Source: Truepera sp. | GTDB taxonomy: Bacteria; Deinococcota; Deinococci; Deinococcales; Trueperaceae | Assembly: GCA_965218435.1 (NCBI GenBank) | Contig: CBDCKW010000009.1 | Span: 96,001-160,000, forward strand | DNA length: 64,000 bases | Direction of reading: 5' to 3' | Shown: one piece after another, positions 27,220 to 50,896 of the stretch | How positions within the stretch are numbered: position 1 is the first letter of the stretch | How the letters are laid out: each line of letters opens with the position of its first letter | The notes under the pieces: generated by a model | What the model was told of the DNA's origin: nothing | Databases searched by the model: none | The model's input: only the letters and a program-made list of their open reading frames with translations | Translations under genes and position numbers: made by a program

Positions 27220-28263
27220 TTAAGAACTCGAGCGTATAACAAGTGAGACGGGTAGTTCGGGCGACGTGGTGGGCTGTCCTCCAAGCCGCGCTAACAGCTG
27301 CGTCGCCGCCTCAGTGCCGAGCTGTTGACGCGGAATCTGCAGCGTCGTGAGGGGCGGATGGCTATAACGGGCGAGGGCAATATCGTCAAACCCGACGACG
27401 GCAACGTCGTCCGGCACGCGCATTCCTACCTCGGCAAGGGCGCGCAGCGCACCGAACGCGGCCATGTCATTGGCGGCAAAAACCGCGTCGAAAGGGGCTG
27501 CGGTAAGCAACTTTTGTGTGGCTAAGTAGCCGCCGTCCGGCCCCAACCGGCCCGTTTGTTGTCGTTCAGGTAAAGCCTCCTTATCCGCTTCGGCGTGGGC
27601 GCGAAGATAGCCCCGACGCCGCTGCAAAAAGTTCGGGTCATGGGGCACTTCGGCAATGAACGCGACCCCCCGGCGTCCTTTTGCGAACAGGTGCCGAGTT
27701 GCCTCATACCCGCCCGCTTCATTGGCCACAGTGACGCTCGGAATCTCAGGACGCCAGCCGCGCCAGCCCCCCGCCGAATCTACCAAAACGAGGGGCAGAC
27801 GCTGCTCGAGCTCTCTTAAGAGCGCCGCCGGTAAGTCACACCCGAGGGCGACTACGCCGTCGCAGCGGCCCTGCACCCACCCCGGGTTGACGCTGTCGGC
27901 ACGCAGGAGTAGCAAACTTAAACCGTTGGCGGTTAAGTGCGCCTCGAGCCCGCCCACCACCTCGGCGTAAAACGCGTCTAAAAAGGTGGGGCCGTGACGC
28001 CCGGAAACGAGGACAGCGACCGTCTCGGTCCGGCCCGATTTAAGCATCTGGCCCGCTGCGTCGGGGGTGTAACCGAGCTCGAGTGCTGCTCTTTGCACCC
28101 GTTCCCGCGTGCCGGGACTAACGTCGGCGTAGCCCCGGAGGGCTCTCGAGACCGTCGAGATCGACACACCTACCGTAGCCGCTACATCGCGGATACTGAC
28201 ACGTTTTCCGGCGCGTTTGCCGGTTCTGCCGGGTGGTAGCAATTTACTTAAAGACAAAGGCAA
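27220..28263 (-). CDS. LacI family transcriptional regulator
   Basis: SIRDVAATVGVSISTVSRAL HTH; VPDDVAVVGFDD, PPLTT. Confidence 0.93.
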   Translation of the reverse strand: MPLSLSKLLPPGRTGKRAGKRVSIRDVAATVGVSISTVSRALRGYADVSPGTRERVQRAALELGYTPDAAGQMLKSGRTETVAVLVSGRHGPTFLDAFYAEVVGGLEAHLTANGLSLLLLRADSVNPGWVQGRCDGVVALGCDLPAALLRELEQRLPLVLVDSAGGWRGWRPEIPSVTVANEAGGYEATRHLFAKGRRGVAFIAEVPHDPNFLQRRRGYLRAHAEADKEALPERQQTGRLGPDGGYLATQKLLTAAPFDAVFAANDMAAFGALRALAEVGMRVPDDVAVVGFDDIALARYSHPPLTTLQIPRQQLGTEAATQLLARLGGQPTTSPELPVSLVIRSSS

Positions 28264-29074
28264 TCCCAGCCGTAAACTGTTTGCGAAAAAACCAAAAGAC
28301 GATCAAGACCGGCAGCGTCAACAGCGTACTCGCCGCGTAGATCGGTCCCGGATACGGCGCGTACGACCCTGAGAGCGACGCCAGCAAGACTGAGAGCGTC
28401 ATCTTCGAGCGGTCACTCACGACCATCAGGTCCCACAAAAGTTGCCCCCAACGGTCCATAAACAAGAATAAGGTAATCACCGCGGTGATCGGCAGTGACA
28501 CCGGGACGATAATCCGAAAGACCACCGCGATCTCCGAGGCCCCGTCAATCCGCGCCGCCTCGATCATCTCACTGTCCACCGATTTGAAAAACGAGGTGTA
28601 CATAAAGATGGCCCACACGCTCATCGCCGTCGGGATGATCATCCCCGCGTAAGAGTTATAAAGCCCGACGTAACGCACGATCAGAAAAGTGGGAACGAGC
28701 AAGATGATGGCCGGAAAAAACATATGAAACAAGATGACGTTGTTGATCAGACCTCGGCCCCGGAACGGAATCAGTGACAAGGCGTACCCGACCAACCCCG
28801 CCGACACGACCATCAGCAACACGCTGGTCACCGTCACGATAAAGCTGTTGACGAGCGCCTGCAGCCACGGGTCCCGCGCACCCGCCTCGAAAAAGAGCCA
28901 GTTGTACGAACGTAGGGTGAGGCTGCTGGGGATGACCTGTTTGTCCACCTGGTCCCAGGGTGCGAGCGACTGCACGATCAGGTAGAGAAACGGTGACACG
29001 GCTGCGACGACCCCGACGAGCAAAACGAGCGCGACCAAGCTGCGCCCGAGCGGATTTGCCCTAGCGCCAACCAT
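28244..29074 (-). CDS. Carbohydrate ABC transporter permease
   Basis: EAARIDGAS EAA motif, six TMs. Confidence 0.93.
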   Translation of the reverse strand: MVGARANPLGRSLVALVLLVGVVAAVSPFLYLIVQSLAPWDQVDKQVIPSSLTLRSYNWLFFEAGARDPWLQALVNSFIVTVTSVLLMVVSAGLVGYALSLIPFRGRGLINNVILFHMFFPAIILLVPTFLIVRYVGLYNSYAGMIIPTAMSVWAIFMYTSFFKSVDSEMIEAARIDGASEIAVVFRIIVPVSLPITAVITLFLFMDRWGQLLWDLMVVSDRSKMTLSVLLASLSGSYAPYPGPIYAASTLLTLPVLIVFWFFRKQFTAGIAFVFK

Positions 29075-29939
29075 TGCGCCCCCCCCACCACTCCATCACG
29101 CGCCGCACGATAAACACTGCGGCAAACACACTTACCGCGTTTAAGAGCGCTACCGCCGACGCGTACCCAGCTTTTAGGCTGGTAAAGAGCTGATAGTAAA
29201 TCTCGAGCGTCCACGTCTGCGTCGCCAGCTCCGGCCCGCCGTTGGTCAAGATAAAAGGCTCCGTAAACACCGAAAACATCGCCCCGACCGACAAGATGAT
29301 GACGGTGTAGAGAGACGGATAGAGCATCGGAAAGGTGATGGTCCAGAACTTCGTCCAAGCGTTCGCCCCGTCTAGGTTGGCCGCTTCGTAGAGTTCGACC
29401 GGGATGCTCTGCAACCCGGCCAAAAAGATCAGCGCGTCGTAGCCTGAAAACTTCCACGCCATCATCAGGCTGATGACGACGACCGCCAGCGCCGGATTGC
29501 CGAGCCAGTCGGGGTCGGCCCCGAACGCGGTGCGCAAAAACGCGTTAAAGGGGCCAAAGTAGTTGAGCACGCCGCGTACCACGAGGGCCGCCGCGACCCC
29601 GGAGGCCAGATAGGGCAAAAAAAAGGCAATCGCCAGCGCCCCTTGAAACCGTTTGACCGAGTTGATTAACAGGGCAATCACCATCGCCGAGGCGAGCGTC
29701 ACGGGGATAAAAATCGCCATGAACTTAAACGGCGTCAGCGCCGCCGCCCGGACGCGGTCGTCTTGCAACGCGTCGGTAAAGTTTTTGAGGCCGATAAAGT
29801 CGCTTTGCGGCGAAATCAGGTCCCACGACTGCGTGGAAAGCCACACGCCCCAGAGGAGCGGAATCAGAAAAAAAACGAAGGTAAAAAGGAGATAAGGGGA
29901 GGCCAAGAGCCACCCCCACCTCGAGAAGTACCGCTTCAC
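29061..29939 (-). CDS. Carbohydrate ABC transporter permease
   Basis: LYEAANLDGA EAA motif. Confidence 0.93.
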   Translation of the reverse strand: MKRYFSRWGWLLASPYLLFTFVFFLIPLLWGVWLSTQSWDLISPQSDFIGLKNFTDALQDDRVRAAALTPFKFMAIFIPVTLASAMVIALLINSVKRFQGALAIAFFLPYLASGVAAALVVRGVLNYFGPFNAFLRTAFGADPDWLGNPALAVVVISLMMAWKFSGYDALIFLAGLQSIPVELYEAANLDGANAWTKFWTITFPMLYPSLYTVIILSVGAMFSVFTEPFILTNGGPELATQTWTLEIYYQLFTSLKAGYASAVALLNAVSVFAAVFIVRRVMEWWGGRNGWR

Positions 29940-29942
29940 CGC

Positions 29943-31214
29943 CTAGTTACCTAAAAGACCCTGCATCGCGGTTTTAGCGTCGGCCCACGCCTGCTCGGGC
30001 GTTTTATCGCCCTTGACCGCCGGAATCAGCCCTTCGTCTGAAAGTGCGGTTTGAATGTCGGAATAGTTTTGGTTGACAATGGGCGGTACCGCATACGGGA
30101 TTTCTTCAGCGTATTGGACCAACGCCGGGTTGTCTTTTAAGAAGCTCGAGAAAACCTGGTTGCTGCTTACGTCGTCCCGGGTCGGCGGTAAATTAGTCGT
30201 TTGAAACCAGGTGAGGTCGTGTTTGGGGTCTGCGTAGACCCATTTGACGAACTCCCAGGCGGCGTTACGCGCGTCCTCCGGCGCTCCGGCAAAGATGACT
30301 AGGCCCTTAGCGTCGGCAAAGGTGTAGACCGGTTTGCCTTTGGCGGTAGTGTCGGGGGTCGGCGGATCGGTCAAAACGTATTCTTCGCCTAAATTCAGGT
30401 CGGGATAGTTTTCGCGCCAGCTCGAGAACGTCCACGGCCCCAGTTCACTCCAGACGCTGTTACCCGTCTCGAACGGCGTTTGCACCTCACGCGTTAAGAT
30501 ACAACCCGCGTCGTTGAGTTTTTGGTAAAAGTCGAATACGGCGATGGCCGCCTGGTCGTCGGCGGTGATTTCGTTGCCGGTAATGAACGGTTTGCCGCCC
30601 GAAGCTGCGTCATAAAGGGTAAAAAAGTCAAACCAGCGTTGCCACCAGACGTTCGTTACGAGGTCGGCCCTGGCCAGCAAAAACTTGTTCGGGTCGGCCT
30701 CTTTGATGGTTTTGCAAGCGTCTAACACCCCGCTATACGTTGCGGGGGGCGTTTTGACACCGCCTGACTGCAAGATGTCGCTCCGCCACCCGAAGAGCAT
30801 CGCGTTGGTGTAGATGGGGAAGATGTAGTAGTTATCGTCGGGGAATGTCCACGCTTTGACGGCAGTTGTGGCGTCCCTAGACTTGACTAACTCGTCCCAA
30901 CCGGGCAGCGTATTGAGCGGCACGATAGCCTTGGCGTTATAGAGCTGCGCACCGAAGCCGATAAAGATGTTTTCAGCAATCGTCGGGCTGTTACCGCCTG
31001 CGAGTGACGCGAGAATGGCCGCTTCAGACGACGGCGTTTCGGGAATCGGCGTTACCGTGACGGTCACGTCCGGGTTGACCTCTTTATACGCCTTCGCCAT
31101 CTCTTCCCAAAACTGCGTTTGGGTGGGGTTGGGCGCAGACCAAAAAGTCACCTCTTGGGCAGCACTTAAAGAACCTATAATGAGACACGCGACCAGCAAA
31201 CCGATACGTTTCAT
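29943..31214 (-). CDS. Sugar ABC transporter substrate-binding protein
   Basis: Signal peptide, family 1 SBP features, first gene of the operon. Confidence 0.9.
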   Translation of the reverse strand: MKRIGLLVACLIIGSLSAAQEVTFWSAPNPTQTQFWEEMAKAYKEVNPDVTVTVTPIPETPSSEAAILASLAGGNSPTIAENIFIGFGAQLYNAKAIVPLNTLPGWDELVKSRDATTAVKAWTFPDDNYYIFPIYTNAMLFGWRSDILQSGGVKTPPATYSGVLDACKTIKEADPNKFLLARADLVTNVWWQRWFDFFTLYDAASGGKPFITGNEITADDQAAIAVFDFYQKLNDAGCILTREVQTPFETGNSVWSELGPWTFSSWRENYPDLNLGEEYVLTDPPTPDTTAKGKPVYTFADAKGLVIFAGAPEDARNAAWEFVKWVYADPKHDLTWFQTTNLPPTRDDVSSNQVFSSFLKDNPALVQYAEEIPYAVPPIVNQNYSDIQTALSDEGLIPAVKGDKTPEQAWADAKTAMQGLLGN

Positions 31215-31316
31215 GTGACCTCCTCTCTAAAAGACGAACCTACCTGCGGGCGACCCTTTCTTTACCCCCTAAACCGGTAGCGGTTGACGAGCCTAAAATG
31301 CCGCTACCAAAGTTTC

Positions 31317-31360
31317 AAAAACGTTTCCGGTACCTTAGCATCAGCTCAACCTAGGGTCAA
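31317..31360 (-). promoter_or_regulatory. Promoter with probable LacI operator
   Basis: Minus strand TTGACC-N17-TAAGGT followed by GGAAACGTTTTT, a LacI-type AAACGTTT core. Confidence 0.65.
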
Positions 31361-31561
31361 GAGGGCGTCAATGAGGATAAAAGATGAACGGGTCGGCACA
31401 AAAGAAATACCCACTTTTACGGCGAAAATCCCAGCGGCGTAGGTGTGCTTGGTAGGTATAAAAGGTGTTACAGTCATAAATTCCACTGCTTCTACAAACG
31501 CTGTACCCGCCGACTCGCTACGACTTGCTGACAGCTTTGGTACGGCGTGCCCACAAAACTG

Positions 31562-32386
31562 TCACGCAAACAGGCGGCGAAACTCTTTGGGCGTCACGCC
31601 GACGGCTTTTTTGAACTGCTTTGAAAAGTGAAACTCGTCAAAAAACCCGAGCTCGAGCGCAACCCTTCTCAGGGTCATGGGGTCACGGACAAGCAGCTCA
31701 CAAGCCTTCTGCATTCGTAGCTGAGCGAGGTACCGACCCGGAGACACGTGCGCTTCTCTGACGAAACGTTTGCGGAAACCCTCGTAGGTCATCCCCAGCT
31801 TTCCGGCGAGGTCAGGGTAGTCGGGAGACGTGGTGACGTACGCGGCTAACAACTCAGTCGCCAGCGCCAACCAACGGGGTTCTGCACGCTCGTGGCGTTT
31901 CTGCTGGGTTAGCACGTCGGCCAAAAGTTGTTGCACTCGGCACAGCCGCGCCAGGGCAAACTCAGCGCCCGCCTGGGGGTCGGTCCACGCCGCCGCGACG
32001 ACGCGCCCCTGCCAATGGTCAACCGGCTCGAGGTGGTAAAGCGGCCGTTCGGGTTTCAGCAAGCCCTGCTGTCGCCACAGCTCAACCACACTGCCCTCAA
32101 AGACCACAAAGGTCTCGCTCCAAGGGTCTTGACCTATGGGGCCGTACACATGACTGATGTCAGGAAAAATGACGAGCAGGTCACCGGGCCGCAGCGAAGC
32201 TGAGTAGCCCGTCTCGTCACGGAAGTACCCGCGTCCGCCGGTGACATACACCAAGGCGTAAAGACCGAACACCCGGGGCGACGCAACGCCACTGCTTTGC
32301 TGCAGCACACCGGCCAGCTTGACCTGACCGAGCGGGCTGCTCGAGCCGGTGTCGAAAACGACGTACTTATCGGCTTCTGCTTTCAT
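31562..32386 (-). CDS. AraC family transcriptional regulator
   Basis: Cupin N-terminus, C-terminal GFFDEFHFSKQFKKAVGVTPKEFR; start uncertain (ORF open to 32455). Confidence 0.9.
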   Translation of the reverse strand: MKAEADKYVVFDTGSSSPLGQVKLAGVLQQSSGVASPRVFGLYALVYVTGGRGYFRDETGYSASLRPGDLLVIFPDISHVYGPIGQDPWSETFVVFEGSVVELWRQQGLLKPERPLYHLEPVDHWQGRVVAAAWTDPQAGAEFALARLCRVQQLLADVLTQQKRHERAEPRWLALATELLAAYVTTSPDYPDLAGKLGMTYEGFRKRFVREAHVSPGRYLAQLRMQKACELLVRDPMTLRRVALELGFFDEFHFSKQFKKAVGVTPKEFRRLFA

Positions 32387-32536
32387 CCCAAATCTTACAT
32401 GAACATACCACTCTAGCCATTCTACGGGCGGGCTGTCCCCGCTATGATCGTCCAATCAACTACGAATAGGCGTCTGCACTATTGCCCGACACTCTACCAA
32501 AACGGCGATACAGCGCCCTTCTTGAGGAGGTCAGCC

Positions 32537-33457
32537 ATGGTGACCGAACCGACACATTTGGAACGTCCGTTAACGAGTAACGGTACGCCGCTTGACCTGT
32601 CGCCCAAACGCTTGGGGCAACTCGAGCCCAGCGACCCCGCGACGCCTATCTCGGAGCTGAGAGCGCAGTATGAAAGGCAAGGCTACCTCTGGCTCAAACG
32701 GTTTTTCGAACCGCACGACATTAGGGCGTTTAGAGAGCGGTTTTTCTCCGCGTTTGCGGACTTGGAACTGCTGGCCGCCGGAACGCAGCCCGCTGAGGGT
32801 ATCTATTCAGGCCGAGACATCAGCGCGAGCGTAACCAACAAAGTGTTAATGGAGTTTGTCCGTACCGCCGCTTACGAGTCGTTTTGCTTGCAGCCAAAAC
32901 TGTGGCAGTTTTACGATGCTTTTTTATGGGGGCCGTCGTACCTACATAAACGTAAAATCATCCGCTACACCACACCTGCTACGCCCGAAACGGCCCGCTC
33001 GACCGGTGCGCATTACGACCTTATCTACCTGCGCTCGGGCACCGACCGGGTGTGCTCGAGCTGGATTCCACTCGGTGACGTTCCTGTAGCGATGGGCGGC
33101 CTGGTGTACCTCGAGGGTTCGGACGCGCTAGGCCGAAAGATGGAAGCCGACTCCAGCCGCCGCAACAAGGACTTGCCACGCGCTGAACAGATCAGCGCCT
33201 ACAACAAAAATATGGGCAAAGGCTGGCTTTCGAAAGACTTGCGCTCACTCGCCGAAAAAGCCGACGGGCGCTGGCTCATGGCCGACTACGAAGCGGGCGA
33301 TATGGTCGTTCACAGCGCCTATATGATTCACGCCGCGACCGACAACACCGACCCGGCGGGGCGGATGCGGCTGTCGACCGACATTCGTTACCAGAACGTC
33401 CGCGATGAGATTGACGCCCGCTGGGAAAACCATTGGACGTTAGGGGACATGTTGTAG
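32537..33457 (+). CDS. Phytanoyl-CoA dioxygenase family (Fe/2-oxoglutarate) enzyme
   Basis: HYD...IHAA...RLSTDIRY; GAGGAGG before ATG 32537. Confidence 0.88.
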   Translation: MVTEPTHLERPLTSNGTPLDLSPKRLGQLEPSDPATPISELRAQYERQGYLWLKRFFEPHDIRAFRERFFSAFADLELLAAGTQPAEGIYSGRDISASVTNKVLMEFVRTAAYESFCLQPKLWQFYDAFLWGPSYLHKRKIIRYTTPATPETARSTGAHYDLIYLRSGTDRVCSSWIPLGDVPVAMGGLVYLEGSDALGRKMEADSSRRNKDLPRAEQISAYNKNMGKGWLSKDLRSLAEKADGRWLMADYEAGDMVVHSAYMIHAATDNTDPAGRMRLSTDIRYQNVRDEIDARWENHWTLGDML

Positions 33458-33520
33458 CGAATTTGCTCAAGATAAGTGACCGCAAAGTTTTAGGTATCGC
33501 CCTTTAAAGGAGGAAACACC

Positions 33521-34906
33521 ATGACCAAAGACGCCGCAACAAAACCCTTTCTTCAGCACCTGGCTACGATCTCGAGTTCTACGATTTCGCGCCGCACCTT
33601 TTTGAAGCTGACCGGAGCGACGGGCGCAGCGGCGGCACTCGGGAGCCTGACCCCGGTCGGGTTTGCCCAGGAACCGGTGACACTGACCTATTGGCACGGT
33701 TGGACGGGCGAATGGGAGAAGATGGTGCAGTTCGTCGTCGATATGTTTCACGAACAGCAAGACCGGATTCGTGTCAATCCGGTGGTCGTCCCCCAAGATC
33801 AACTCTTGGCGAAGCTGAGCGCGGCGATTGCTGCGGGTAATCCGCCGGATATTACGACGCTGTTCGGTTCTACGGCAATTCCGACCCTTGCCCGTCAAGG
33901 TGCGATTATGGCGCTCGAGGACGTTGGCGGCGTTGATTTAGCGGCGGCGCAGGCGTGGTTCGACCCGGACATCTACAAGCTCGGTCAGTTTGAAAATAAA
34001 ACCTATGGCCTTTCGTATTGGGCCGGTGATTTTGCGCTGCTCTACAACAAGGCGCACTTTGAGGCGGCGGGGCTCGACCCGGACAAAGGCCCGACGACGA
34101 TCGCCGAACTCGACGCCTACGCCGAAAAACTGACTGTCAAAGACGGCGATAAAATCACTCGGCTGGGCTTCTTACCCAACGATTTATGGCTCTGGGGAAC
34201 CGTTTACGGGGGCAGCTTTTACAACGCCGAAACCGGGCAGGTCACGGCGAACGATCCGGGCGTTGTCGAGGCGCTCGCTTGGATTCGCTCATACCCTGAA
34301 AAGTACGGCGCGCGGGAAGTGGCGGCGTTTCAGTCAGGGCTCTCGAGCGAGCGAGCGCAAAACCTCGACCCGTTTATCGCAGGCAAATATTCGATGCAGA
34401 TTCAAGGCCCGTGGAAGCTCGGCGATATCCGCAACTTCGGTCAAGATGTGCAGTACGGGGTAGTTGCGCCGCCCGTTCCCGAAACCGGGATGCCCAAAGC
34501 CAACTGGACGTGGGGCGACATCCAGATCATCCCGACCGGCAGCAAAGACCCTGCCGCCGCCGCCGAGTTCGTGCTGTTTACCGGTGGTGTGAATGATCCC
34601 AAAGGCTACGTCAAGCGTGTGACCTGGGGTGACCGACCCATTAACGTACCCGTATCTAAAAAAGTCATCGAGAATCCGGCCTTTCAAAAGGTGGTCAGCG
34701 AATACCCTGGGTTTGATACCTTTGTCGAGGCACTCCTGAGCGCCGAGCGGGTGGGTTCGCCCCCGGTGATGGCGGCGGCTGCCTTTTACGCCGAGCGCAT
34801 GACGGCGATGCTCGAGCGCGTGATGCTCTTACAGCTCGAGCCCCAAGCCGCTTTAGACGGCCTGACCGACGAGGTTCAGCGTCAACTTCAGGCTATGGGC
34901 GGCTAG
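33521..34906 (+). CDS. Tat-exported sugar ABC substrate-binding protein
   Basis: SRRTFLK Tat motif; family 1 SBP motifs. Confidence 0.9.
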   Translation: MTKDAATKPFLQHLATISSSTISRRTFLKLTGATGAAAALGSLTPVGFAQEPVTLTYWHGWTGEWEKMVQFVVDMFHEQQDRIRVNPVVVPQDQLLAKLSAAIAAGNPPDITTLFGSTAIPTLARQGAIMALEDVGGVDLAAAQAWFDPDIYKLGQFENKTYGLSYWAGDFALLYNKAHFEAAGLDPDKGPTTIAELDAYAEKLTVKDGDKITRLGFLPNDLWLWGTVYGGSFYNAETGQVTANDPGVVEALAWIRSYPEKYGAREVAAFQSGLSSERAQNLDPFIAGKYSMQIQGPWKLGDIRNFGQDVQYGVVAPPVPETGMPKANWTWGDIQIIPTGSKDPAAAAEFVLFTGGVNDPKGYVKRVTWGDRPINVPVSKKVIENPAFQKVVSEYPGFDTFVEALLSAERVGSPPVMAAAAFYAERMTAMLERVMLLQLEPQAALDGLTDEVQRQLQAMGG

Positions 34907-34918
34907 GCAAAAGGCTTC

Positions 34919-35812
34919 ATGGCCCTTTCCGATTACCGTTCAGCACAGCGTTCAAACCGGGTGGCGGGTCGCCGGGAAGCGCGGACCCGCCGCGCCGTCC
35001 GCCGCCTGTTTCGTCACCTGTTTCTTATCGCACTCAGCTTATTGTTTCTCGCACCGTTCGTGTGGATGGTCTCGACTTCGTTCAAGACGAACGCGCAAGT
35101 GGTCGAGTGGCCCCCACGGTGGCTGCCGAACCCACTGCACCCGGCAAATTATCCTGGCGTGTTCGCGTCAATTCCGCTCTTGACCTACGCGAAAAACACG
35201 CTGATCGTCACCTCGCTCAGCGTCATCGGCGCGGTCGTCTCGAATTCAGTGATCGCTTACGGCTTTGCGCGTATCCGCTGGCCCGGACGAGACGTACTTT
35301 TTATCATCACCTTAGGCACCTTGATGCTCCCCTTTCAGGTGACGATGATCCCGCTGTTCATCATGTTTTCAAAGATGGGCTGGGTCAACACGTTTCTGCC
35401 GCTGATCGTCCCGGCGTTTCTGGGCAACGCCTTCTACATCTTTTTACTCCGGCAGGTCTACTTGGGGATTTCGGAGGAGTTCTCCGAAGCGGCGCGGATC
35501 GAGGGCGCGTCGGATTTGCATATCCTCTGGCACATCATCGTGCCGCTGGCGCGTCCGGCCCTTTTAAGCGTCGCGCTCTTTCAGTACCTTGCGTCGTGGA
35601 ACGACTTTTTAGGGCCGCTCTTATACCTTAACGACGCCTCGAAGTTCACCCTGGCGCTGGGACTCGCCAACATGCAGTCGGCGCTCGGATTATCCGACTT
35701 CGGGCAGATTATGGCCGCTGCAACGATGATCGTGCTGCCGGTCATTGGGGTCTTTATGTTTACGCAGCGGTACTTTCTCGAGGGCATCGCCGCGTCGGGG
35801 CTTAAAGGCTAA
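34919..35812 (+). CDS. Carbohydrate ABC transporter permease (MalG-like)
   Basis: EAARIEGAS, WNDFLGPL. Confidence 0.93.
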   Translation: MALSDYRSAQRSNRVAGRREARTRRAVRRLFRHLFLIALSLLFLAPFVWMVSTSFKTNAQVVEWPPRWLPNPLHPANYPGVFASIPLLTYAKNTLIVTSLSVIGAVVSNSVIAYGFARIRWPGRDVLFIITLGTLMLPFQVTMIPLFIMFSKMGWVNTFLPLIVPAFLGNAFYIFLLRQVYLGISEEFSEAARIEGASDLHILWHIIVPLARPALLSVALFQYLASWNDFLGPLLYLNDASKFTLALGLANMQSALGLSDFGQIMAAATMIVLPVIGVFMFTQRYFLEGIAASGLKG

Positions 35813-36717
35813 TGGCAATCGTCACCAAAAAACGCACCTCACGGGCGCAGCGATGGGCCTTGATTCGTGGCCTTGCCTTTGTCAGCCCCTGGCTTGTTGG
35901 GCTCTGCTGGTTTTATATCTATCCCTTTTTCGCCTCGCTCTACTACAGCTTTCGCAACACCACCCCGTTTTCTGCCGGAACGTTTTTAGGGCTCGAGAAT
36001 TACCGCTTACTCGTCAGCGATCCGCTTTTTTGGCGCTCGCTGCTTAACACCTTTTACTTTACGGGCGTTTCCGTCATTTTAGGCAACTTGTTTGCCCTAG
36101 CCCTGGCGCTGCTCTTAAGTCAGCGGCTGCGCGGGATGACCTTTTACCGCACCATCTTTTACCTGCCGAGCATCGTGCCGTTTGTAGCGGTCTCGGTCGT
36201 CTGGATTTGGATTTTGCATCCGCAGTACGGGATTGTCAATTACGCGCTCGAGCGGCTCGGTTTGCCCGCTTTAGGTTGGTTTAGCGATCCCAACTGGGCG
36301 ATGCCCGGTCTTATCTTGGTAAGTCTATGGAGCACCGGCAACATGATGGTCATCTATCTGGCGGGGCTGCTCGACGTACCTAGAGAATTACACGAGGCGG
36401 CGACGATTGACGGCGCGTCGGCGTGGCAACGGACGCTCCGAATTACCATTCCGCTGCTGACGCCGATCATTCTTTTCAACGTCATTATCGGGCTGATCGG
36501 CGGCTTTCAGTATTTTATTCAGCCCTACATCATCACCCAAGGTGGTCCGGCGGATTCGACCTTGGTTTACGCGCTTTACCTCTATCAGAACGCGTTTTCT
36601 TACTTTCGGATGGGTTACGCCTCGGCGATGGCCTGGGTGCTCTTCGTCGTGATCATGATCGTGACGCTGCTGGTGTTTCGCTCGTCGGGGCGTTGGGTTT
36701 TTTACCGGAACCGCTGA
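35812..36717 (+). CDS. Carbohydrate ABC transporter permease (MalF-like)
   Basis: EAATIDGAS, GYASAMAW. Confidence 0.93.
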   Translation: MAIVTKKRTSRAQRWALIRGLAFVSPWLVGLCWFYIYPFFASLYYSFRNTTPFSAGTFLGLENYRLLVSDPLFWRSLLNTFYFTGVSVILGNLFALALALLLSQRLRGMTFYRTIFYLPSIVPFVAVSVVWIWILHPQYGIVNYALERLGLPALGWFSDPNWAMPGLILVSLWSTGNMMVIYLAGLLDVPRELHEAATIDGASAWQRTLRITIPLLTPIILFNVIIGLIGGFQYFIQPYIITQGGPADSTLVYALYLYQNAFSYFRMGYASAMAWVLFVVIMIVTLLVFRSSGRWVFYRNR

Positions 36718-37009: not shown

Positions 37010-38350
37010 CTACCGAACGACTTTTAGAAACGCTTCGATGTCAAGTCCACCTTTGCCGATCCCGTTTTTGTAAGCTTTGTTTTGACCGTTGCCGTAAAGG
37101 TCGTCTGTTTGTTCCATCAGTACGTCAGCGAGCCTGCTGCGGTCTACGTTGAGGGACTCGCCGAGAGCAAGCGCCAGCGCCCCTGAAGCCATCGGTGCGG
37201 CCTGCGAGGTGCCCGTCCAGGCGGCTAAACTCAGTTCCGGTGCCGGACCGAAGACGCGTTCGCCCGGGGCGGCGAGTTCGACCTCTTTGCCGTAGGTGGC
37301 AAAGTCCGACTTCGCGCCCGCCAGCGTGATACTCGTAACGCTGGTGCGCAGACGTCCGGCCTTACCATTGGCTTTTGAAGCGGGGAAGGTCACCTCTTTG
37401 TTGCCGGTGTTGCCGCTCGAGGCAACCACAAACACTCCCTGCTTATTGGCCCACTTGATGGCTTCGTCGACGGCTTTGATATCTTTGTCGCTGCCGAGTG
37501 AAAGGTTGATGATGTCAGCACCTTGGTCTGTCGCCCACTGGATGGCCGCAGTGAGGTGCGCCACGTCGCCCGAACCGTCAGGACGGAGCACCCGGATAGG
37601 CAAGATCGTCGCGCGCGGCGCAACTTGGCGGATGATGCCCGCGACGTTGGTGCCGTGCCCATAACCGTCGGCGCTTAGGTTTCCCTCTTCTCGAGGCAAA
37701 TTGTCGTTGTCTACAAAATCCTTCCATTCCGCAGCCGGTGCAAGCGCCTCTGCCAGCGCCGGGTGCGCCAGGTCAATCCCGGTGTCGATCACCGCGACCT
37801 TGACGTTATAGCCCAGGTTTTTGGCGAGCGTCTGGCCTTGCTCGAGGTGCACCCGTTGCCAAATCGCCGTGTTTTCCGGCATCCAGAGATACTGACCGTT
37901 CGACCACAGCTCAGCTCCGCCTCCTGCCCAAGTGCGCGACCTGCCACCGGCCCAGGTACGCGACCTGCCGCCAGCCCAAGTGCGTGAGCGCCCGTCCATC
38001 CAGGCGACCTCGCCCCCCGCTAAAAAGGCGTTGCGGCTCTCCTCGAGGGTCAGGTTCGCCCATTCGTCACTCGTGGCGTCGGCTTGGACGCTCAAGGCGC
38101 TGTCAAGCCCGACCACGGCGTAGACACCTGGCTGCCAGACGACGATCTCGCCGCCGTAACGCCTTTCGATGTTGGCGCGCGTGTCGCTCGGCTTAAGCGT
38201 CACGGTCAGCACGTAGTCGGGCCGCGCTGTAGCCGTGCGCGTCGCGGCCGGTGCCGAGGTCTGACAACCGGTCATGAACAGTAAGAGTGTGGCCGCAAGC
38301 AGATAATAGTTCCTCCGGCCGTAACGAAGACGTAATAGATGAAGTTTCAC
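37010..38350 (-). CDS. S8 (subtilisin-like) lipoprotein peptidase with internal octapeptide repeats
   Basis: MTGC lipobox; catalytic DTG, HGT, GTS motifs; (GRSRTWAG)x3 between the pro-region and catalytic domain. Confidence 0.93.
   Translation of the reverse strand: MKLHLLRLRYGRRNYYLLAATLLLFMTGCQTSAPAATRTATARPDYVLTVTLKPSDTRANIERRYGGEIVVWQPGVYAVVGLDSALSVQADATSDEWANLTLEESRNAFLAGGEVAWMDGRSRTWAGGRSRTWAGGRSRTWAGGGAELWSNGQYLWMPENTAIWQRVHLEQGQTLAKNLGYNVKVAVIDTGIDLAHPALAEALAPAAEWKDFVDNDNLPREEGNLSADGYGHGTNVAGIIRQVAPRATILPIRVLRPDGSGDVAHLTAAIQWATDQGADIINLSLGSDKDIKAVDEAIKWANKQGVFVVASSGNTGNKEVTFPASKANGKAGRLRTSVTSITLAGAKSDFATYGKEVELAAPGERVFGPAPELSLAAWTGTSQAAPMASGALALALGESLNVDRSRLADVLMEQTDDLYGNGQNKAYKNGIGKGGLDIEAFLKVVR
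37922..37993 (-). repeat. 3 x 24-bp coding tandem repeat (GRSRTWAG)
   Basis: Identical peptide with only synonymous nucleotide differences between copies. Confidence 0.95.
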
Positions 38351-38406
38351 TTCTCACTCCTTAGGTGTTACTAACGGGTAAGCCTGTCCCCCCGTAGCAC
38401 ACCGAA

Positions 38407-38440
38407 AGTCTAAAGTGAAAAGCCTGACGAAATTCTTACT
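38407..38440 (-). promoter_or_regulatory. Direct-repeat promoter of the S8 gene
   Basis: AGTAAG-AATTT-CGTCAG-N11-TAGACT on the minus strand. Confidence 0.65.
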
Positions 38441-38565
38441 TTCTGCTGACCGGCGTAAAGCTCTAAACGAAGCTGGCTGCGACGCCGTTTAGGTCAGCGT
38501 GCCCCTTTACGTTCCGGGCTCCTTTATAAAGATCGTTGCCCTTCTTCGAACCCGAGCTGCTGAGT

Positions 38566-38599
38566 TGTAAGAGTTTTGTCAGTCGGTGTTGTTTAGCGT
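38566..38599 (+). promoter_or_regulatory. Direct-repeat promoter of the TPR-HD-GYP-GGDEF gene
   Basis: TGTAAG-AGTTT-TGTCAG-N11-TAGCGT. Confidence 0.65.
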
Positions 38600-38708
38600 A
38601 GGGTGCGGCTCACGTTTTGAACCGCAAAACTTACCGACCTGGGGATTCTGATGTGGCAGCGCGGCAGTCTAGACCAAAAATGTATCCGGGGCTCCGTCAG
38701 GGGCGATT

Positions 38709-41147
38709 ATGTCTTATGAACCGCTCGGTTTAGTGCCTACAACCGTTGCCGACAAGTCGGCGTCGGTGGCGCACGAGGCGGCACAACTGCTTAGGGCAGC
38801 TTTGGCGGCAGGCCGAACATGCCGTGAGCTCGGCGACTTTGAAAGCGCCGCGGCGCAGTTTTCTACGGCGCTTGCCTTAGCCAAACAGCTGGACGACGCC
38901 GGAGCCGAGTCTGACACCCTTAACCTGCAAGCTGGCCTGTGGAGTACGATGGGCGACACGCCGCGGGCGCTGGAAGCTCTGGAGCGTGCGCTCGAGCTGG
39001 TTCAAGCCCCGCAGTTCAGGGACCGTCAAGCCAACATCTTAAACAACATGGGCACGTTACATACAGTGCTCGGCAATTATCCGCAAGCCCTGGAACACCT
39101 TAAACACGCCCACGACCTTTTGCGCACGGTCGCCCCAACGTCCCGGAGTTCGGCTAGCAACCTGACCAATCTAGGGAGTTTATATCAGGAGCTAGGTGAC
39201 CCGGCTGAAGCCAAGAGGTTTTTTACCCAAGCTGCCGAGGTCGCGCAAGAGGCCGCTGAACCTCTGATGGCTGCAGCCGCTCTGAATAACCTGGCTTACA
39301 CCCACGCCGACGCCGGGGAGTGGCCGCTAGCCAAGGGTTATTTTCAAAAGGCGCTGACGATCAGTCAGGAGGCGGGGGCGAAAGAGTACGAAATCGATAA
39401 CCTCGACGGCCTGGGACAGGTCTACGCCGCTTTAGGCGAGGCTGACCAAGCTAAAAAGACCCATGAGGCTGTTTTAAGAAAAGCCAGGGACATCGGTTAC
39501 CTAGAAGGTGACGCGCTGCTCAACTTGGGGCGAAACTATCTGGCTCGGCAGCCTTTAGCGGCGCTCGAGTTTTTACATCAGGGTCTTCGGGTTGCTCAGC
39601 AGCTGGGGCGCTCCGTCGCCGTGTACGAAGCGCACGACCTCCTGGCCAAAGCGTATGAAGGCACAGGCGACTTTGCCAGCGCCCTCTTTCATCAGCGGGC
39701 CTATCAAACAGCGGAAAAAGCCGTTTACAACGAAGAGAACGAACGTCAAGCGCGCAGGCTCACCACTCAGTTCGACCTCGAGCGGGCGCGCCGCGAAGCC
39801 GAAGAGTACCGCCTCCGCAACGAGATCACCCAGCAAGCCCGGGACGACGCCGAGGCGACGGTGCGTGAGCGCACACGTGAGCTTGAAGAGGCGCAGCTCG
39901 AGATCGTCACGCGCCTCGCCGTCGCTGCCGAATACCGCGACGACAACACCGGCGAACACACCCGGCGGGTCGGCCGCAACGCCGCTGCGATTGCCCACGC
40001 CCTCGGCTGGCCGGAAGACGAGGTGCAGCTTCTTTTTACCGCTGCCAGACTTCACGACGTCGGCAAGATTGCGATCAGCGACCTTATTTTGCACAAACCG
40101 GGAAAGCTTACACCCGAAGAGCTCGCCCTGATGAAAACCCACGCCATGATCGGGGCGCGTATCTTGTCCGGTGGCCGCTCACCGCTTTTGCAGCTGGCTG
40201 AAGAGATCGCGCTGGCCCACCACGAACGCTGGGACGGTAAGGGCTACCCGCTGGGACTTTCGGGTGACGCCATTCCGCTGGCTGCCCGGATCGTAGCTGT
40301 TGCCGATGTGCTCGACGCCCTGACGCACGAGCGCCCCTACAAACGGCCGTGGCCGGTCGAGGAAGCGTTAGCTGAGATCGGTCGGCAGAGCGGCCATCAC
40401 TTCGAACCGCACGTCGTAAAGGCGTGCTTCGCGGCTTTCGGTCCGGGTCGCGCACTTTCTCCCACCGACGACCCGGCAGCTTGGCGCGGCACCGTTCAGT
40501 TCTCGGCCGGACCGTCTGCCCCGGCTGCGCCCTATCAAGCTTTGGAAACTGTGAGCTCGGTTGAGCGACTGAAAAAACTCCTGGCCAAAGCGGTTCAAGA
40601 CCTCGAGCTCAGTCGCCACGAGGCGCGAGCCGTGTCCCGGCAGATGCACGAGATGGCGTTCTCCGATCCCTTGACAGGGCTGTATAACCGCCGCGCGTTC
40701 AGGGCCGACCTCGAGGCCGAGACGTCGCGCGCCCTGCATCAGGGCGACACTTTAAGCGTGCTTAACTTAGACCTCGACTTGCTCAAGCAGGTCAACGATA
40801 CCGAGGGGCACGAGCGTGGTGACGCGCTGCTGCGCAGCTTTGCCGAGGCGGCGAGCAAACAGCTGCAGCCGTGGGGCAGGCTCTACCGTGTCGGGGGCGA
40901 CGAGTTCGCGGCGATTCTCTCCCATACCAGCACGCAGCACTTCGGCGCGGTTCGCGCGCAGCTGGAGAGGGCGGTAGCCGAGGTTCGTGCGGACGGCTTT
41001 GCCGGCGCGGGGGTCAGCTTAGGGATCGTGGCGTTTCCCGAAGAGGTCGCGACCACCGGGGATTTGGTCCGTCTCAGCGACCAACGCATGTATGAAGACA
41101 AGCTTAAACGGCGAAAAATGCGGCAGGGGTTACAGCCTGCTGAATAA
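38709..41147 (+). CDS. TPR-repeat + HD-GYP + GGDEF c-di-GMP signalling protein
   Basis: Asn-rich TPRs (LNNMG, LTNLG, LNNLA); HDVGK..HHERWDGKGYP; DLDLLKQVND..GGDEF. Confidence 0.93.
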   Translation: MSYEPLGLVPTTVADKSASVAHEAAQLLRAALAAGRTCRELGDFESAAAQFSTALALAKQLDDAGAESDTLNLQAGLWSTMGDTPRALEALERALELVQAPQFRDRQANILNNMGTLHTVLGNYPQALEHLKHAHDLLRTVAPTSRSSASNLTNLGSLYQELGDPAEAKRFFTQAAEVAQEAAEPLMAAAALNNLAYTHADAGEWPLAKGYFQKALTISQEAGAKEYEIDNLDGLGQVYAALGEADQAKKTHEAVLRKARDIGYLEGDALLNLGRNYLARQPLAALEFLHQGLRVAQQLGRSVAVYEAHDLLAKAYEGTGDFASALFHQRAYQTAEKAVYNEENERQARRLTTQFDLERARREAEEYRLRNEITQQARDDAEATVRERTRELEEAQLEIVTRLAVAAEYRDDNTGEHTRRVGRNAAAIAHALGWPEDEVQLLFTAARLHDVGKIAISDLILHKPGKLTPEELALMKTHAMIGARILSGGRSPLLQLAEEIALAHHERWDGKGYPLGLSGDAIPLAARIVAVADVLDALTHERPYKRPWPVEEALAEIGRQSGHHFEPHVVKACFAAFGPGRALSPTDDPAAWRGTVQFSAGPSAPAAPYQALETVSSVERLKKLLAKAVQDLELSRHEARAVSRQMHEMAFSDPLTGLYNRRAFRADLEAETSRALHQGDTLSVLNLDLDLLKQVNDTEGHERGDALLRSFAEAASKQLQPWGRLYRVGGDEFAAILSHTSTQHFGAVRAQLERAVAEVRADGFAGAGVSLGIVAFPEEVATTGDLVRLSDQRMYEDKLKRRKMRQGLQPAE

Positions 41148-47891: not shown

Positions 47892-47898
47892 CGTGTCT

Positions 47899-48390
47899 AT
47901 GACGAGGGTTCGTGCCGGGTTTACGCTTTTAGAAATGCTCATTGTTATGAGCATTATGGGCATCCTTATGGCTATAGGTATTCCTATGCTGCGCCCCCCG
48001 TCTTCATATCTTTTCGCTAACGACCTTAAAGCGATGATTTTGCAAGCGCGTTATGAAGCGATTAAACGTAATACGCCCGTCGCGGTTGTTTGGAGTAGTA
48101 CGAACCGTACCTACACCACGCGGCTCGACGCGACCAATACCACCTTTGCCAATACTAATAGTGCCTGCACAAGTAGCACAATTATCAGTACCAAGCAGCT
48201 CAGCGACTACCGAAACGTTGACATCTCAACCAATATGCCGGGAAACGGCATTGTTTGGTTACCTACAGGTTTGGCAAGAAGTTGCAGTACAGGTGTCGGA
48301 AACAGCACCACAACAATCGGTGACGGTAGGCAGACCTATAAGGTCATCACCTCAGCAGGTGGCCGAATTAGGCTCGAGAAAGCATCGTGA
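47899..48390 (+). CDS. Type IV minor pilin, FimT/GspH-like
   Basis: G|FTLLEML prepilin motif, ARYEAIKRN. Confidence 0.88.
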   Translation: MTRVRAGFTLLEMLIVMSIMGILMAIGIPMLRPPSSYLFANDLKAMILQARYEAIKRNTPVAVVWSSTNRTYTTRLDATNTTFANTNSACTSSTIISTKQLSDYRNVDISTNMPGNGIVWLPTGLARSCSTGVGNSTTTIGDGRQTYKVITSAGGRIRLEKAS

Positions 48391-48773
48391 AGTCGTCCGC
48401 AGGCTTGACGCTGCTCGAGGTCATCGTTGCGCTGGTCGTACTGGTTGTTGGCGTTTTACTCGCCGCCACGATGCAGACGAGCGCCCTACGTGCGAGCAGT
48501 GAAGCCGCCGCTACGCAGGGCGTCACTAAATTTGCGGAGGCGGAGATCGAGCTGCGGCGGCAGCTTGACCTAAGCACGGCTGCCAGCAAAGCTGCGACCT
48601 GTATAACTTCGGTCACGTCGGGTTACACCTGTCAGGTGCAAGTGCGCGCTTGTCAGCTTTCCGGTTCTTCGCTAAGTTGTACGGGTACCGGGAGCGACGC
48701 CGATCAGGTCAAAGTTACAGTGGGTGGCCCGCGTCAGAAAACCGTCACGCTTACCACGGTTAAAGCAAGATGA
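48387..48773 (+). CDS. Type IV minor pilin, PilV-like
   Basis: G|LTLLEVIVAL prepilin motif, four Cys. Confidence 0.85.
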   Translation: MKSSAGLTLLEVIVALVVLVVGVLLAATMQTSALRASSEAAATQGVTKFAEAEIELRRQLDLSTAASKAATCITSVTSGYTCQVQVRACQLSGSSLSCTGTGSDADQVKVTVGGPRQKTVTLTTVKAR

Positions 48774-49414
48774 AACACGCACGAAGCGCCGGTTTTACGC
48801 TGGTGGAGTTGCTTGTCGCAGGGACAATTATGCTGCTTATCCTCGGAGCTTTAGGAAACCTTTTTGTCAGCTCGAGCCGCGCTTACCGGGTCAACAACGA
48901 AGCTTCAGACCGTCAACAGACTGCTGAGGCCGCTACCCAAATGCTGACCTACGAGATTGGTCTAGCGGGCTACCGCGGGTCTGATCAAGGTGCAAGCTCC
49001 AGGGAATTTAAGACAACAGCGGTACTAGGCGTAGTTTCAGTTCCGGAAAGTACACTCATTATCACCAAGGGCGCGACCGCTACCAGCCCCGACACGGTTA
49101 CGGTTCGCTACTACGAAGACCGCTTTATTAGCTCAACCGCAAAACGTACGGCTGCTTTTACTGCCGCTAAGGATAGTGATAATGCTTATAACCTCTACCG
49201 CGCTCAAGACGGTGATAACAAGCCCGCTATCTTAGGTGTCAAAAACCTCAAAGTCGTGAAATATATTAAAAGAGACGGTACCGAAGCGACCAGCGCCACC
49301 AAAGACACCCTCGCCGCCCTTAAGCTCGAGCTCACTTTTATTGACGGACTTAAGCAGCAACTCGTTATCAGCATTCCCAACCTGCAGCAACTTCCCGTTC
49401 TTCCGACTCTTTAA
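48770..49414 (+). CDS. Type IV minor pilin, PilW-like
   Basis: G|FTLVELLVA, EIGLAGY. Confidence 0.87.
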   Translation: MKHARSAGFTLVELLVAGTIMLLILGALGNLFVSSSRAYRVNNEASDRQQTAEAATQMLTYEIGLAGYRGSDQGASSREFKTTAVLGVVSVPESTLIITKGATATSPDTVTVRYYEDRFISSTAKRTAAFTAAKDSDNAYNLYRAQDGDNKPAILGVKNLKVVKYIKRDGTEATSATKDTLAALKLELTFIDGLKQQLVISIPNLQQLPVLPTL

Positions 49415-49441
49415 CCCTTTACGTCGTCTCGAGAGGTCACT

Positions 49442-50896
49442 ATGAAAAAGCAAGACGGTATCGCTCTAATTGCAACACTCCTTATTATGGCCGCTATCAT
49501 GGCGCTCGGTGTGGGTACACTCTTTTTAGCCAACATGAACTTGCATATTGCTGAAAACAGCCGCACGCACGCCGTTGCTCGTTACAACGCCGAGGCGGGT
49601 TTGGAAGCGGCACTTGTCAAGTTAAAAAAAGATTATGAAGCGAGCACACCTAAGCAGTTTCCTACAACGCTGACGATGCCGAGTTCGCCAGATAGCGCCG
49701 TGACCTATCAGAACGCTGGCTACACGCCCTACACGACAGCCGGTATAAGAACGCAGGCTCGAGTCGTTATTGTCGGTACCGGCCCGAACAGCGCACGCTA
49801 CCAAACTGAGGCGCTTTTGGGGGCGGCAGCGCCTACTTCGAGCACGCCGCCGAGCTGGATGGGTCTGGTCAGTGAAAATGTTGTAGATGCGAACGGTGGC
49901 CCCACACTTACCGACGCACAGCTACACGGCAACGGCGGTTATGAGATTGCTGGTAATACAACGTTTCAGACGTGTAAAGGGGCAAAGTGCGAAGAGTTCA
50001 AAGTCTCGGACAGCCCGGTAACCGCAGCGCCCGGAATGTCTTCTTACGAATGCAAGTCCAACGGGGGTAAGAGCGAACTCTGTTTTGGAGGAAAACCCGC
50101 CAAATATTCAGATAAGCCTGTTTCTATTGGAGACATCAACCAAAAGTATCTGGACTTGCGGAACGGCACGGGAACGAGTCCGAGTAAGTTCGGCGTCAGA
50201 AGCACCGACACGCTTACAAGCAGCGCGGCGCTTACTGGCTGTACTTACAGCTTGAGTGCTACAACGACGACTAAGGGCAAAAAGACGGAAACGACGCCTG
50301 CCCAACTAGCTACGAGCTATCCCAGCGGCTCGACCGTTTGTGTCAACGGCGACGCAAACGTACCTTCTGGTGCAACCTATTCGGATGTCAAGATCATTGT
50401 CAAGGGTAGCGCGGCTATAAACGGTACCGCTACGTTTAATAACGCAAATCTTCTAAGCATGAACGTACTCGACCTTGGCGGCGACATAACGATGGCTAAC
50501 GGCAGCCGCTTGTTCGGCGATTCCCAAGTAAATTTTGCTGGCTCTGTTGCCTATAGCGGTACGGCGACGATTGCTTCAGGGGGGACAATGAACTTCACGT
50601 CAAAAGCCAAAGAAATCTATAACACCCAGTCCAACGAGGTCGGTTTAGCCGTTATCTCTGTTGGCAATTTTGACGCCCAGGGAGGATTAAAAGGCAAAAG
50701 TGAAGAGTTTGTAAACGCTGCAATCCAAGTAGGCGGCGTAGCTAATGTCAACGGGGGCGCTAAAGTTCGGGGTGGGATTAGTTCAAAAGGCAGGCTGACT
50801 ATTAAGGGGCATAGCGAGATATACGGCGACGCCGTGCTGACCAACACTGACCTCTCGAGCGCCGACCTAACTGTAGCCGCCTTAAGCCGCCGTTAG
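49442..50896 (+). CDS. PilX/ComZ-like large minor pilin
   Basis: G|IALIATL (no Glu5), YNAEAGL, long Gly/Asn/Thr-rich beta-type C-terminus. Confidence 0.8.
   Translation: MKKQDGIALIATLLIMAAIMALGVGTLFLANMNLHIAENSRTHAVARYNAEAGLEAALVKLKKDYEASTPKQFPTTLTMPSSPDSAVTYQNAGYTPYTTAGIRTQARVVIVGTGPNSARYQTEALLGAAAPTSSTPPSWMGLVSENVVDANGGPTLTDAQLHGNGGYEIAGNTTFQTCKGAKCEEFKVSDSPVTAAPGMSSYECKSNGGKSELCFGGKPAKYSDKPVSIGDINQKYLDLRNGTGTSPSKFGVRSTDTLTSSAALTGCTYSLSATTTTKGKKTETTPAQLATSYPSGSTVCVNGDANVPSGATYSDVKIIVKGSAAINGTATFNNANLLSMNVLDLGGDITMANGSRLFGDSQVNFAGSVAYSGTATIASGGTMNFTSKAKEIYNTQSNEVGLAVISVGNFDAQGGLKGKSEEFVNAAIQVGGVANVNGGAKVRGGISSKGRLTIKGHSEIYGDAVLTNTDLSSADLTVAALSRR

Follow-up and report, generated by a model that had tools for sequence, protein, structure and literature searches.

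Within a 64,000-nucleotide (nt) stretch of a Truepera sp. genome assembly (GCA_965218435.1, contig CBDCKW010000009.1, positions 96,001 to 160,000; hereafter the window), a lipoprotein-type S8 subtilase precursor of 446 amino acids (aa) (37010..38350, minus strand) lies head to head with an 812 aa protein (38709..41147, plus strand) which carries tetratricopeptide repeats (TPR) followed by HD-GYP and GGDEF domains, with 358 nt between the two open-reading frames (ORFs). The subtilase contains tandem, Trp-bearing cassettes between its pro-domain and its catalytic domain, and across Deinococcota the sequence of these cassettes varies together with the peptide-binding groove of the neighbouring TPR domain. 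We propose that the subtilase is a self-processing pheromone precursor, and that the released and re-imported peptide would control the cyclic di-GMP (c-di-GMP) activity of the TPR protein, its candidate receptor, between cells; on the comparison of sequences we put the probability of this at roughly one half. The broader proposition, that the module is a variant of TPR-receptor peptide signalling, appears to have strong comparative support.

Conservation of the gene pair across Deinococcota

A subtilase match at E 1e-60 was found in 134 of 301 Deinococcota genomes, and among the 120 best of 2566 protein relatives (8000 scored), which were examined for repeats, nearly all carried two to five xxxxW[AS]GG units at the same site, Calidithermus and Trueperaceae being named amongst them. 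The survey of gene pairing proposed by the original prediction was made on 143 subtilases, namely those in stretches around 139 of the 150 matches listed (110 further matches lay beyond these) together with the window. A TPR gene lay within 1.5 kb in 135 of the 143, so that the expected pairing is indeed conserved; three of the eight unaccompanied subtilases were near a contig end. The TPR gene was most often directly downstream on the same strand (126), with four divergent, three convergent and two upstream arrangements, the divergent layout of the window therefore being atypical of the family (4/143). The module is Deinococcota-wide.

A second sample of 40 more stretches, around weaker matches in the own family, was added, and a tree was built in which 181 catalytic domains were distinct (two rows were dropped for want of an anchor, as was one duplicate). 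A TPR neighbour accompanied 112 of 118 subtilases with 8-residue repeats, the class which includes the window, and 29 of 53 with 7-residue repeats; the 8-residue/HD-GYP branch is thus a tight module, whilst its sister branch is often unpaired. One locus (L112) contained a tandem duplication of the module, with two subtilase-TPR pairs encoding different peptides, and two others (L019 and L397) contained tandem subtilases with no TPR gene within the sampled stretch. A search of genome contigs with a generic S8 motif recovered mostly unrelated subtilases, and its four Deinococcota loci were left out of the counts. Scanning metagenomes with a DNA pattern for the repeat returned 120 stretches, one of which held a family subtilase (L278, beside a TPR-HD gene), the rest being low-complexity DNA.

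Trp-repeat cassettes in the subtilase

As first described from the sequence, the protein is a lipoprotein S8 protease with Trp every eight residues in the gap between pro-region and catalytic domain, a description which Pfam (Peptidase_S8) and the Trp positions (117, 125, 133, 141 and 149, followed by 156 and 164) support. The signal peptide and lipobox Cys29 (38264..38350, minus strand) are followed by a pro-domain at about residues 44-112 (38015..38221, minus strand); Cys29 is invariant in 41 aligned relatives and a lipobox-like Cys occurs in 139 of 143. Three GRSRTWAG copies, the candidate signal cassettes, occupy residues 120-143 (37922..37993, minus strand), with RSRTWAGG an equally possible register. 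The catalytic domain (37061..37810, minus strand; Peptidase_S8 at residues 181-430) has the Asp-His-Ser triad (D189, H232, S382) and oxyanion Asn (N314) which, with the pro-domain, characterise an S8A subtilase. All 123 aligned relatives have this triad unchanged, and it is kept in 140 of the 143 family subtilases.

An AlphaFold2 model built from 41 sequences was confident for the catalytic domain and most of the pro-domain, which shows a strand at residues 109-111, whilst residues 125-153 fell below 50 in predicted local distance difference test (pLDDT) score; this low confidence favours the original prediction, in that the repeats probably do not form a structural element of the protease. 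The closest folds were unprocessed pro-subtilisins, IS1-inserted pro-subtilisin E (3whi) and pro-Tk-subtilisin (2z2z), at E 5e-24. The pro-domain ends in E-x-N-xxx-F-L-A-G-G, which we take as the probable autoprocessing site, as subtilisins are in general cleaved at the end of the pro-domain, and across the family this F-x-[AG]-G-G end resembles the junction between repeat units. A small P1 residue is plausible, with Thr found in 93 of 123 family subtilases at the position which we presume to correspond to subtilisin Gly166.

The three window copies differ per 24 nt by eight (first versus second), four (second versus third) and six (first versus third) nucleotides with unchanged amino acids, the first two figures agreeing with those originally given, and every codon of the array other than that of Trp has changed between copies. 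Recent slippage as the origin of the array can be ruled out, since all eight variable sites are synonymous. Across 123 loci, genes contained one to six identical copies, alike within a gene and different between genes, and many arrays were arranged A-B-A, with identical first and last units around a different middle unit. Two LGARPIWIW copies lie 20 residues apart in Deinococcus radiodurans (L189, a 10-residue spacer), and L217 has a single copy. In the extracted units, in which the extraction rule fixes the W and the final G, positions 1-3 were highly variable and position 4 was mostly hydrophobic. Paralogous modules within one genome encoded different peptides in all seven genomes checked. 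Three family subtilases (L210, L213 and L227) contained a Trp-less cassette (SRAYIFG, NRAYITG). The four other subtilases of the window's own genome are without such repeats, and a separate mini-peptide gene encoding the window's peptide was found neither in that genome nor near its three other TPR-GGDEF-type genes.

Co-variation of the repeat and the TPR groove

Co-variation of repeat and TPR, a check suggested by the original prediction, was measured on 123 pairs retained from the 143 subtilases (eight had no TPR and eight no callable repeat; one duplicate, one short TPR, one without an anchor and one further row were also dropped), with the 102-103 that had an HD domain being used. Across 103 loci, the distance between repeats correlated with that between TPR domains once catalytic and HD distances were removed (partial 0.365), in contrast to 0.043 against the protease's own catalytic domain and −0.117 against the HD domain. 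The pro-domain, which adjoins the repeats and diverges at a rate like that of the TPR, gave −0.025. At 43 loci where the two genes had tree-discordant nearest neighbours, the closer peptide was in the TPR neighbour 28 times and in the protease neighbour 12 times.

The groove itself was defined as TPR positions 2, 5, 6, 9, 12 and 13, which were chosen ahead of the test and confirmed afterwards in PMC1261162. In 51 disjoint locus pairs, peptide distance correlated with groove distance at rho 0.82 and with the outer helix at 0.62, and the groove retained a partial rho of 0.62 with catalytic, HD and remaining TPR distance removed, so the groove does track the repeat. Random 48-column sets gave 0.08 ± 0.17 and were as high as the groove in 1 of 1000 draws, variance-matched non-groove sets in 0 of 1000, and none of 350 other 8-column protease windows exceeded 0.37. 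The groove partial ranged from 0.51 to 0.70 across four pairing schemes, shifting the register revealed helical periodicity, and the 8-residue class alone (48 pairs) again gave 0.62. Divergence of the groove relative to non-groove positions was 0.54 in the 14 pairs with an unchanged peptide and 1.0 in the 25 pairs with a changed one. The three subtilases with Trp-less cassettes are near that of L140 (distance 1.3-1.4), whilst their TPR domains have diverged far from its partner (3.4-3.8).

Several results weigh against a secreted peptide controlling the partner. Taken over all pairs, the groove score was 0.163, not above random column sets (0.113 ± 0.071); single-column scores gave no clear signal, with no separation between the columns of the TPR and those of the protease; and in held-out loci, prediction of the peptide from the groove was, for most rows, not separated from prediction from the protease. 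The greedily chosen disjoint pairs fall short of strictly independent contrasts, and kinship is left out of account in the Mantel permutation. Co-variation alone demonstrates neither release, nor import, nor action between cells. Repeats were also retained by subtilases that lack a TPR neighbour, namely 26 of 41 in the more distant sample and 24 of 53 in the 7-residue class (four of the latter near a contig edge). Finally, a switch between synthesis and degradation of c-di-GMP is not general, as only 59 of 135 partners have both enzymes. The original picture of a protease which is its own multi-copy pheromone precursor and toggles its partner between the two activities is favoured in its first part by the gene pairing, the low-confidence repeats and the groove co-variation; its second part is not general to the family.

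Unpaired subtilases would be expected if the repeats were a linker, a folding aid or an auto-inhibitory bait, as IS1 is in Tk-subtilisin, and if co-regulation were all that joined the two genes. The 24 unpaired members of the 7-residue class, the fold matches to IS1-inserted pro-subtilisin E and pro-Tk-subtilisin, and an upstream box common to the gene pair (see below) all fit such a role, yet the repeats change in step with the groove of the neighbouring TPR domain, not with the domains of the protease itself, and their copy number and spacing vary freely, and we consider it very improbable.

The TPR-HD-GYP-GGDEF partner

The partner (Pfam TPR, HD_5 and GGDEF) is predicted to be cytoplasmic: its highest 19-residue hydropathy window is 1.58, and such a window exceeds 1.8 in only 2 of 123 partners. 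Its TPR domain (residues 22-345; 38772..39743, plus strand) was modelled as eight helical hairpins with a pLDDT of 96.6. These repeats had been called Asn-rich, and three Asn residues are near-invariant amongst 102 partners (N72 in 101, N113 in 98 and N194 in 94). The HD-GYP phosphodiesterase domain (HD_5 at residues 408-569; 39930..40415, plus strand) and the GGDEF domain (residues 650-803; 40656..41117, plus strand) appear intact in sequence, as had been claimed: HD (HDVGK), HHExxDGxGYP (HHERWDGKGYP), ExRD and RxYK motifs are all present in the former, and RVGGDEF, with no RxxD I-site, in the latter. By the same motifs, the putative phosphodiesterase site is widely kept in the family (HD in 103 and HHExxDGxGYP in 87 of 104 partners), and GG[DE]EF appears in 52 of 67 GGDEF-bearing partners. 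Of the 135 partners, 59 combine HD-GYP and GGDEF, 53 have HD-GYP only, 17 GGDEF only and six neither, and by these counts it is the HD-GYP domain, following the TPR, that forms the core output. Neither domain was detected in the TPR partners of L128, L131, L187, L190 and L370 (654-984 aa in L128, L131 and L187, where complete), which likely carry another output domain.

Searching the TPR model against 48,161 solved chains placed LGN with Frmpd4 first (Z 32.5, root-mean-square deviation (rmsd) 3.4, 314 residues aligned) and Pins:Insc next (Z 31.3), ahead of RapI (Z 25.9, rmsd 4.8, 319 aligned), Rap105 (Z 21.7) and NprR (Z 20.9); in a profile search LGN was likewise the best natural sequence match, with a transcriptional regulator/TPR protein (5dbk_A) 60th. 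The candidate receptor is RRNPP-like in design, whilst its fold is nearer to LGN/Pins than to Rap. LGN/Pins (GPSM2) has eight TPRs which bind extended peptides, but it is a eukaryotic scaffold with no enzyme output and no secreted ligand.

That LGN and Pins bind extended segments of proteins would also suit a purely cytoplasmic arrangement, in which the TPR domain binds the repeats of the unexported precursor, with avidity from their tandem array, and senses export load with no release or import. The groove co-variation and the co-transcription of the genes (126/143 co-directional) are explained without import; however, the cassettes are placed precisely where the pro-domain meets the catalytic domain, their ends resemble the end motif of the pro-domain, and the catalytic triad is kept in 140 of 143, which makes this account improbable in our estimation.

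Three further partner-like TPR proteins with no adjacent subtilase are encoded in the window's own genome (C4:10808-12628, C9:3084632-3086497 and C9:2271434-2272753), two fused to GGDEF and the third with a GGDEF apparently in another frame; these are possible orphan receptors.

A shared upstream box

The statement that both promoters carry the same motif was correct: a 16 nt box, GTAAG-N5-YGTCAG, faces the protease gene (GTAAGAATTTCGTCAG; 38439-38424, minus strand; conserved in L109) and a second copy, with two mismatches, faces the TPR gene (GTAAGAGTTTTGTCAG; 38567-38582, plus strand). An equally good inverted pair arose in 4 of 300 dinucleotide shuffles, and a second, opposite copy is present in three divergent loci (the window, L109 and L239). 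Amongst 137 family subtilases, 19 have the pattern GT[AC]A[GC]-N5-YGT[AC]A[GC] upstream, in constant orientation; other spacer lengths gave zero to two, and of 249 control upstream regions eight contained it. Genome-wide, the spacer preference is weak (25 occurrences at spacer 5 versus 9-20 at others), and support for the box therefore rests on the family promoters. Its 11-bp direct repeat presumably points to an OmpR- or SARP-type regulator, and through the shared box the divergent pair can stay co-regulated. A sigma-70 consensus promoter was looked for and none was found.

Proposed mechanism

In the mechanism we favour, the subtilase would be exported as a lipoprotein, as its lipobox suggests, and would process itself after F-L-A-G-G and then cut at the similar T-W-A-G-G junctions, so that each protease molecule would yield up to three peptides (GRSRTWAG or RSRTWAGG) of about eight residues. 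The peptides would spread outside the cell and be taken up through an oligopeptide (family-5) ATP-binding cassette (ABC) transporter; the 16 SBP_bac_5 (family-5 peptide-binding protein) matches in the genome show only that an import route exists. Inside the cell, a peptide may lie in the concave TPR groove, with the conserved Asn residues holding its backbone and the variable groove residues reading its variable positions, and a conformational change passing through the post-TPR helix may then reach the HD-GYP core output, with GGDEF as an optional add-on. As to the direction of control, we lean towards phosphodiesterase activation.

All of the co-variation evidence would also fit if the peptide were freed in the periplasm and re-taken by the same cell, reporting protease maturation or envelope state in place of cell density. 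Deinococcota possess an outer membrane, the precursor is lipid-anchored, and a hand-summed mass of ~890 Da may keep the peptide from crossing that membrane freely. Rapid diversification of the peptide among close relatives and its multi-copy amplification are nevertheless typical of between-cell signals (PMC11343458), and we regard a signal confined to its own cell as unlikely.

Returning to signalling between cells, a larger picture can be drawn, which we offer a little more tentatively than the mechanism itself: a peptide language spanning the phylum Deinococcota and of separate origin from RRNPP, in which the protease would be precursor, maturase and amplifier, a TPR-fused enzyme would convert the peptide directly into a change in c-di-GMP, and kin-specific channels would be provided by peptide types numbering in the dozens, with several to a genome and one in D. 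radiodurans. If true, TPR-receptor peptide signalling would reach beyond Bacillota into a phylum with an outer membrane, a peptide would be tied directly to c-di-GMP with no intervening transcription factor or kinase, and pheromones would have a new route of manufacture, being cut in several copies per molecule from a maturing protease. There would also be a candidate ligand for a c-di-GMP enzyme of D. radiodurans, so that a laboratory species would be available for tests of the idea with synthetic peptides, and the rules of TPR recognition could be learnt from more than 100 natural peptide-groove pairs.

Comparison with known systems

RRNPPA systems are described in PMC11343458 as the peptide-based quorum sensing found in Bacillota (Rap-Phr, NprR-NprX, PlcR-PapR, Rgg, PrgX and AimR), with a dedicated propeptide of 50-120 aa and an N-terminal DNA- or target-protein-binding output amongst their defining features, and with duplicated pheromones in some Phr propeptides. 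The likeness is considerable: a predicted cytoplasmic receptor with a TPR-type, putatively peptide-binding domain stands beside a putatively exported precursor in which a peptide of 5-10 residues is repeated several times (taking the subtilase as that precursor, its gene adjoins the receptor gene in 135 of 143), the sequences of peptide and receptor diversify in concert, and the fold resembles RapI, Rap105 and NprR. The co-variation of groove and peptide points towards a receptor which may be specific for its cognate peptide. In contrast, the carrier here is a 446 aa subtilase with an intact triad, the TPR is N-terminal with HD-GYP/GGDEF at the C-terminus, the precursor is a lipoprotein, the host belongs to Deinococcota, and LGN and Pins outscore the Rap folds. 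Because two defining features are absent and the ranking of folds does not decide descent from a Rap-type TPR, we do not file the module as an RRNPPA member. The protease likewise resembles pro-Tk-subtilisin (2e1p/2z2z) and IS1-inserted pro-subtilisin E (3whi) in combining a pro-domain and S8 fold with extra sequence at their junction, but here the inserted sequence consists of tandem Trp cassettes, which differ in copy number between loci and co-vary with another gene.

In D. radiodurans, the family subtilase (L189) is directly upstream of a TPR gene, and a transposase separates the TPR from the HD part (L189:6243-10117). This split gene is probably DR_A0342, which PMC11219805 records as having HD-GYP and GGDEF domains and as being interrupted by IS2621 in one strain, and laboratory strains may differ in this system. 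That account covers the c-di-GMP domains, with the protease, repeats and TPR absent from the part available, and the available parts of PMC8779699 and PMC6895123 contain nothing on DR_A0342. The main text of bioRxiv 10.1101/2021.11.05.467447 mentions neither TPR nor Deinococcus, although its supplements may list this architecture. Our literature search, which did not cover subscription papers, found no description of the module, which is real, conserved and apparently undescribed in print.

Neighbouring genes

An NCBIfam scan of five proteins gave no equivalog or subfamily model at cut-off, with the GGDEF domain model alone passing. About 7 kb from the module is a type IV pilin-like gene cluster (47893-50896; N-terminal methylation-type leaders, PilX-like), which is a plausible c-di-GMP-related output of the module. 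The region at 27220-36717 is ordinary, and from its translations, read with no family scan, we name two sugar ABC-transporter clusters, LacI- and AraC-type regulators and a phytanoyl-CoA-dioxygenase-like ORF.

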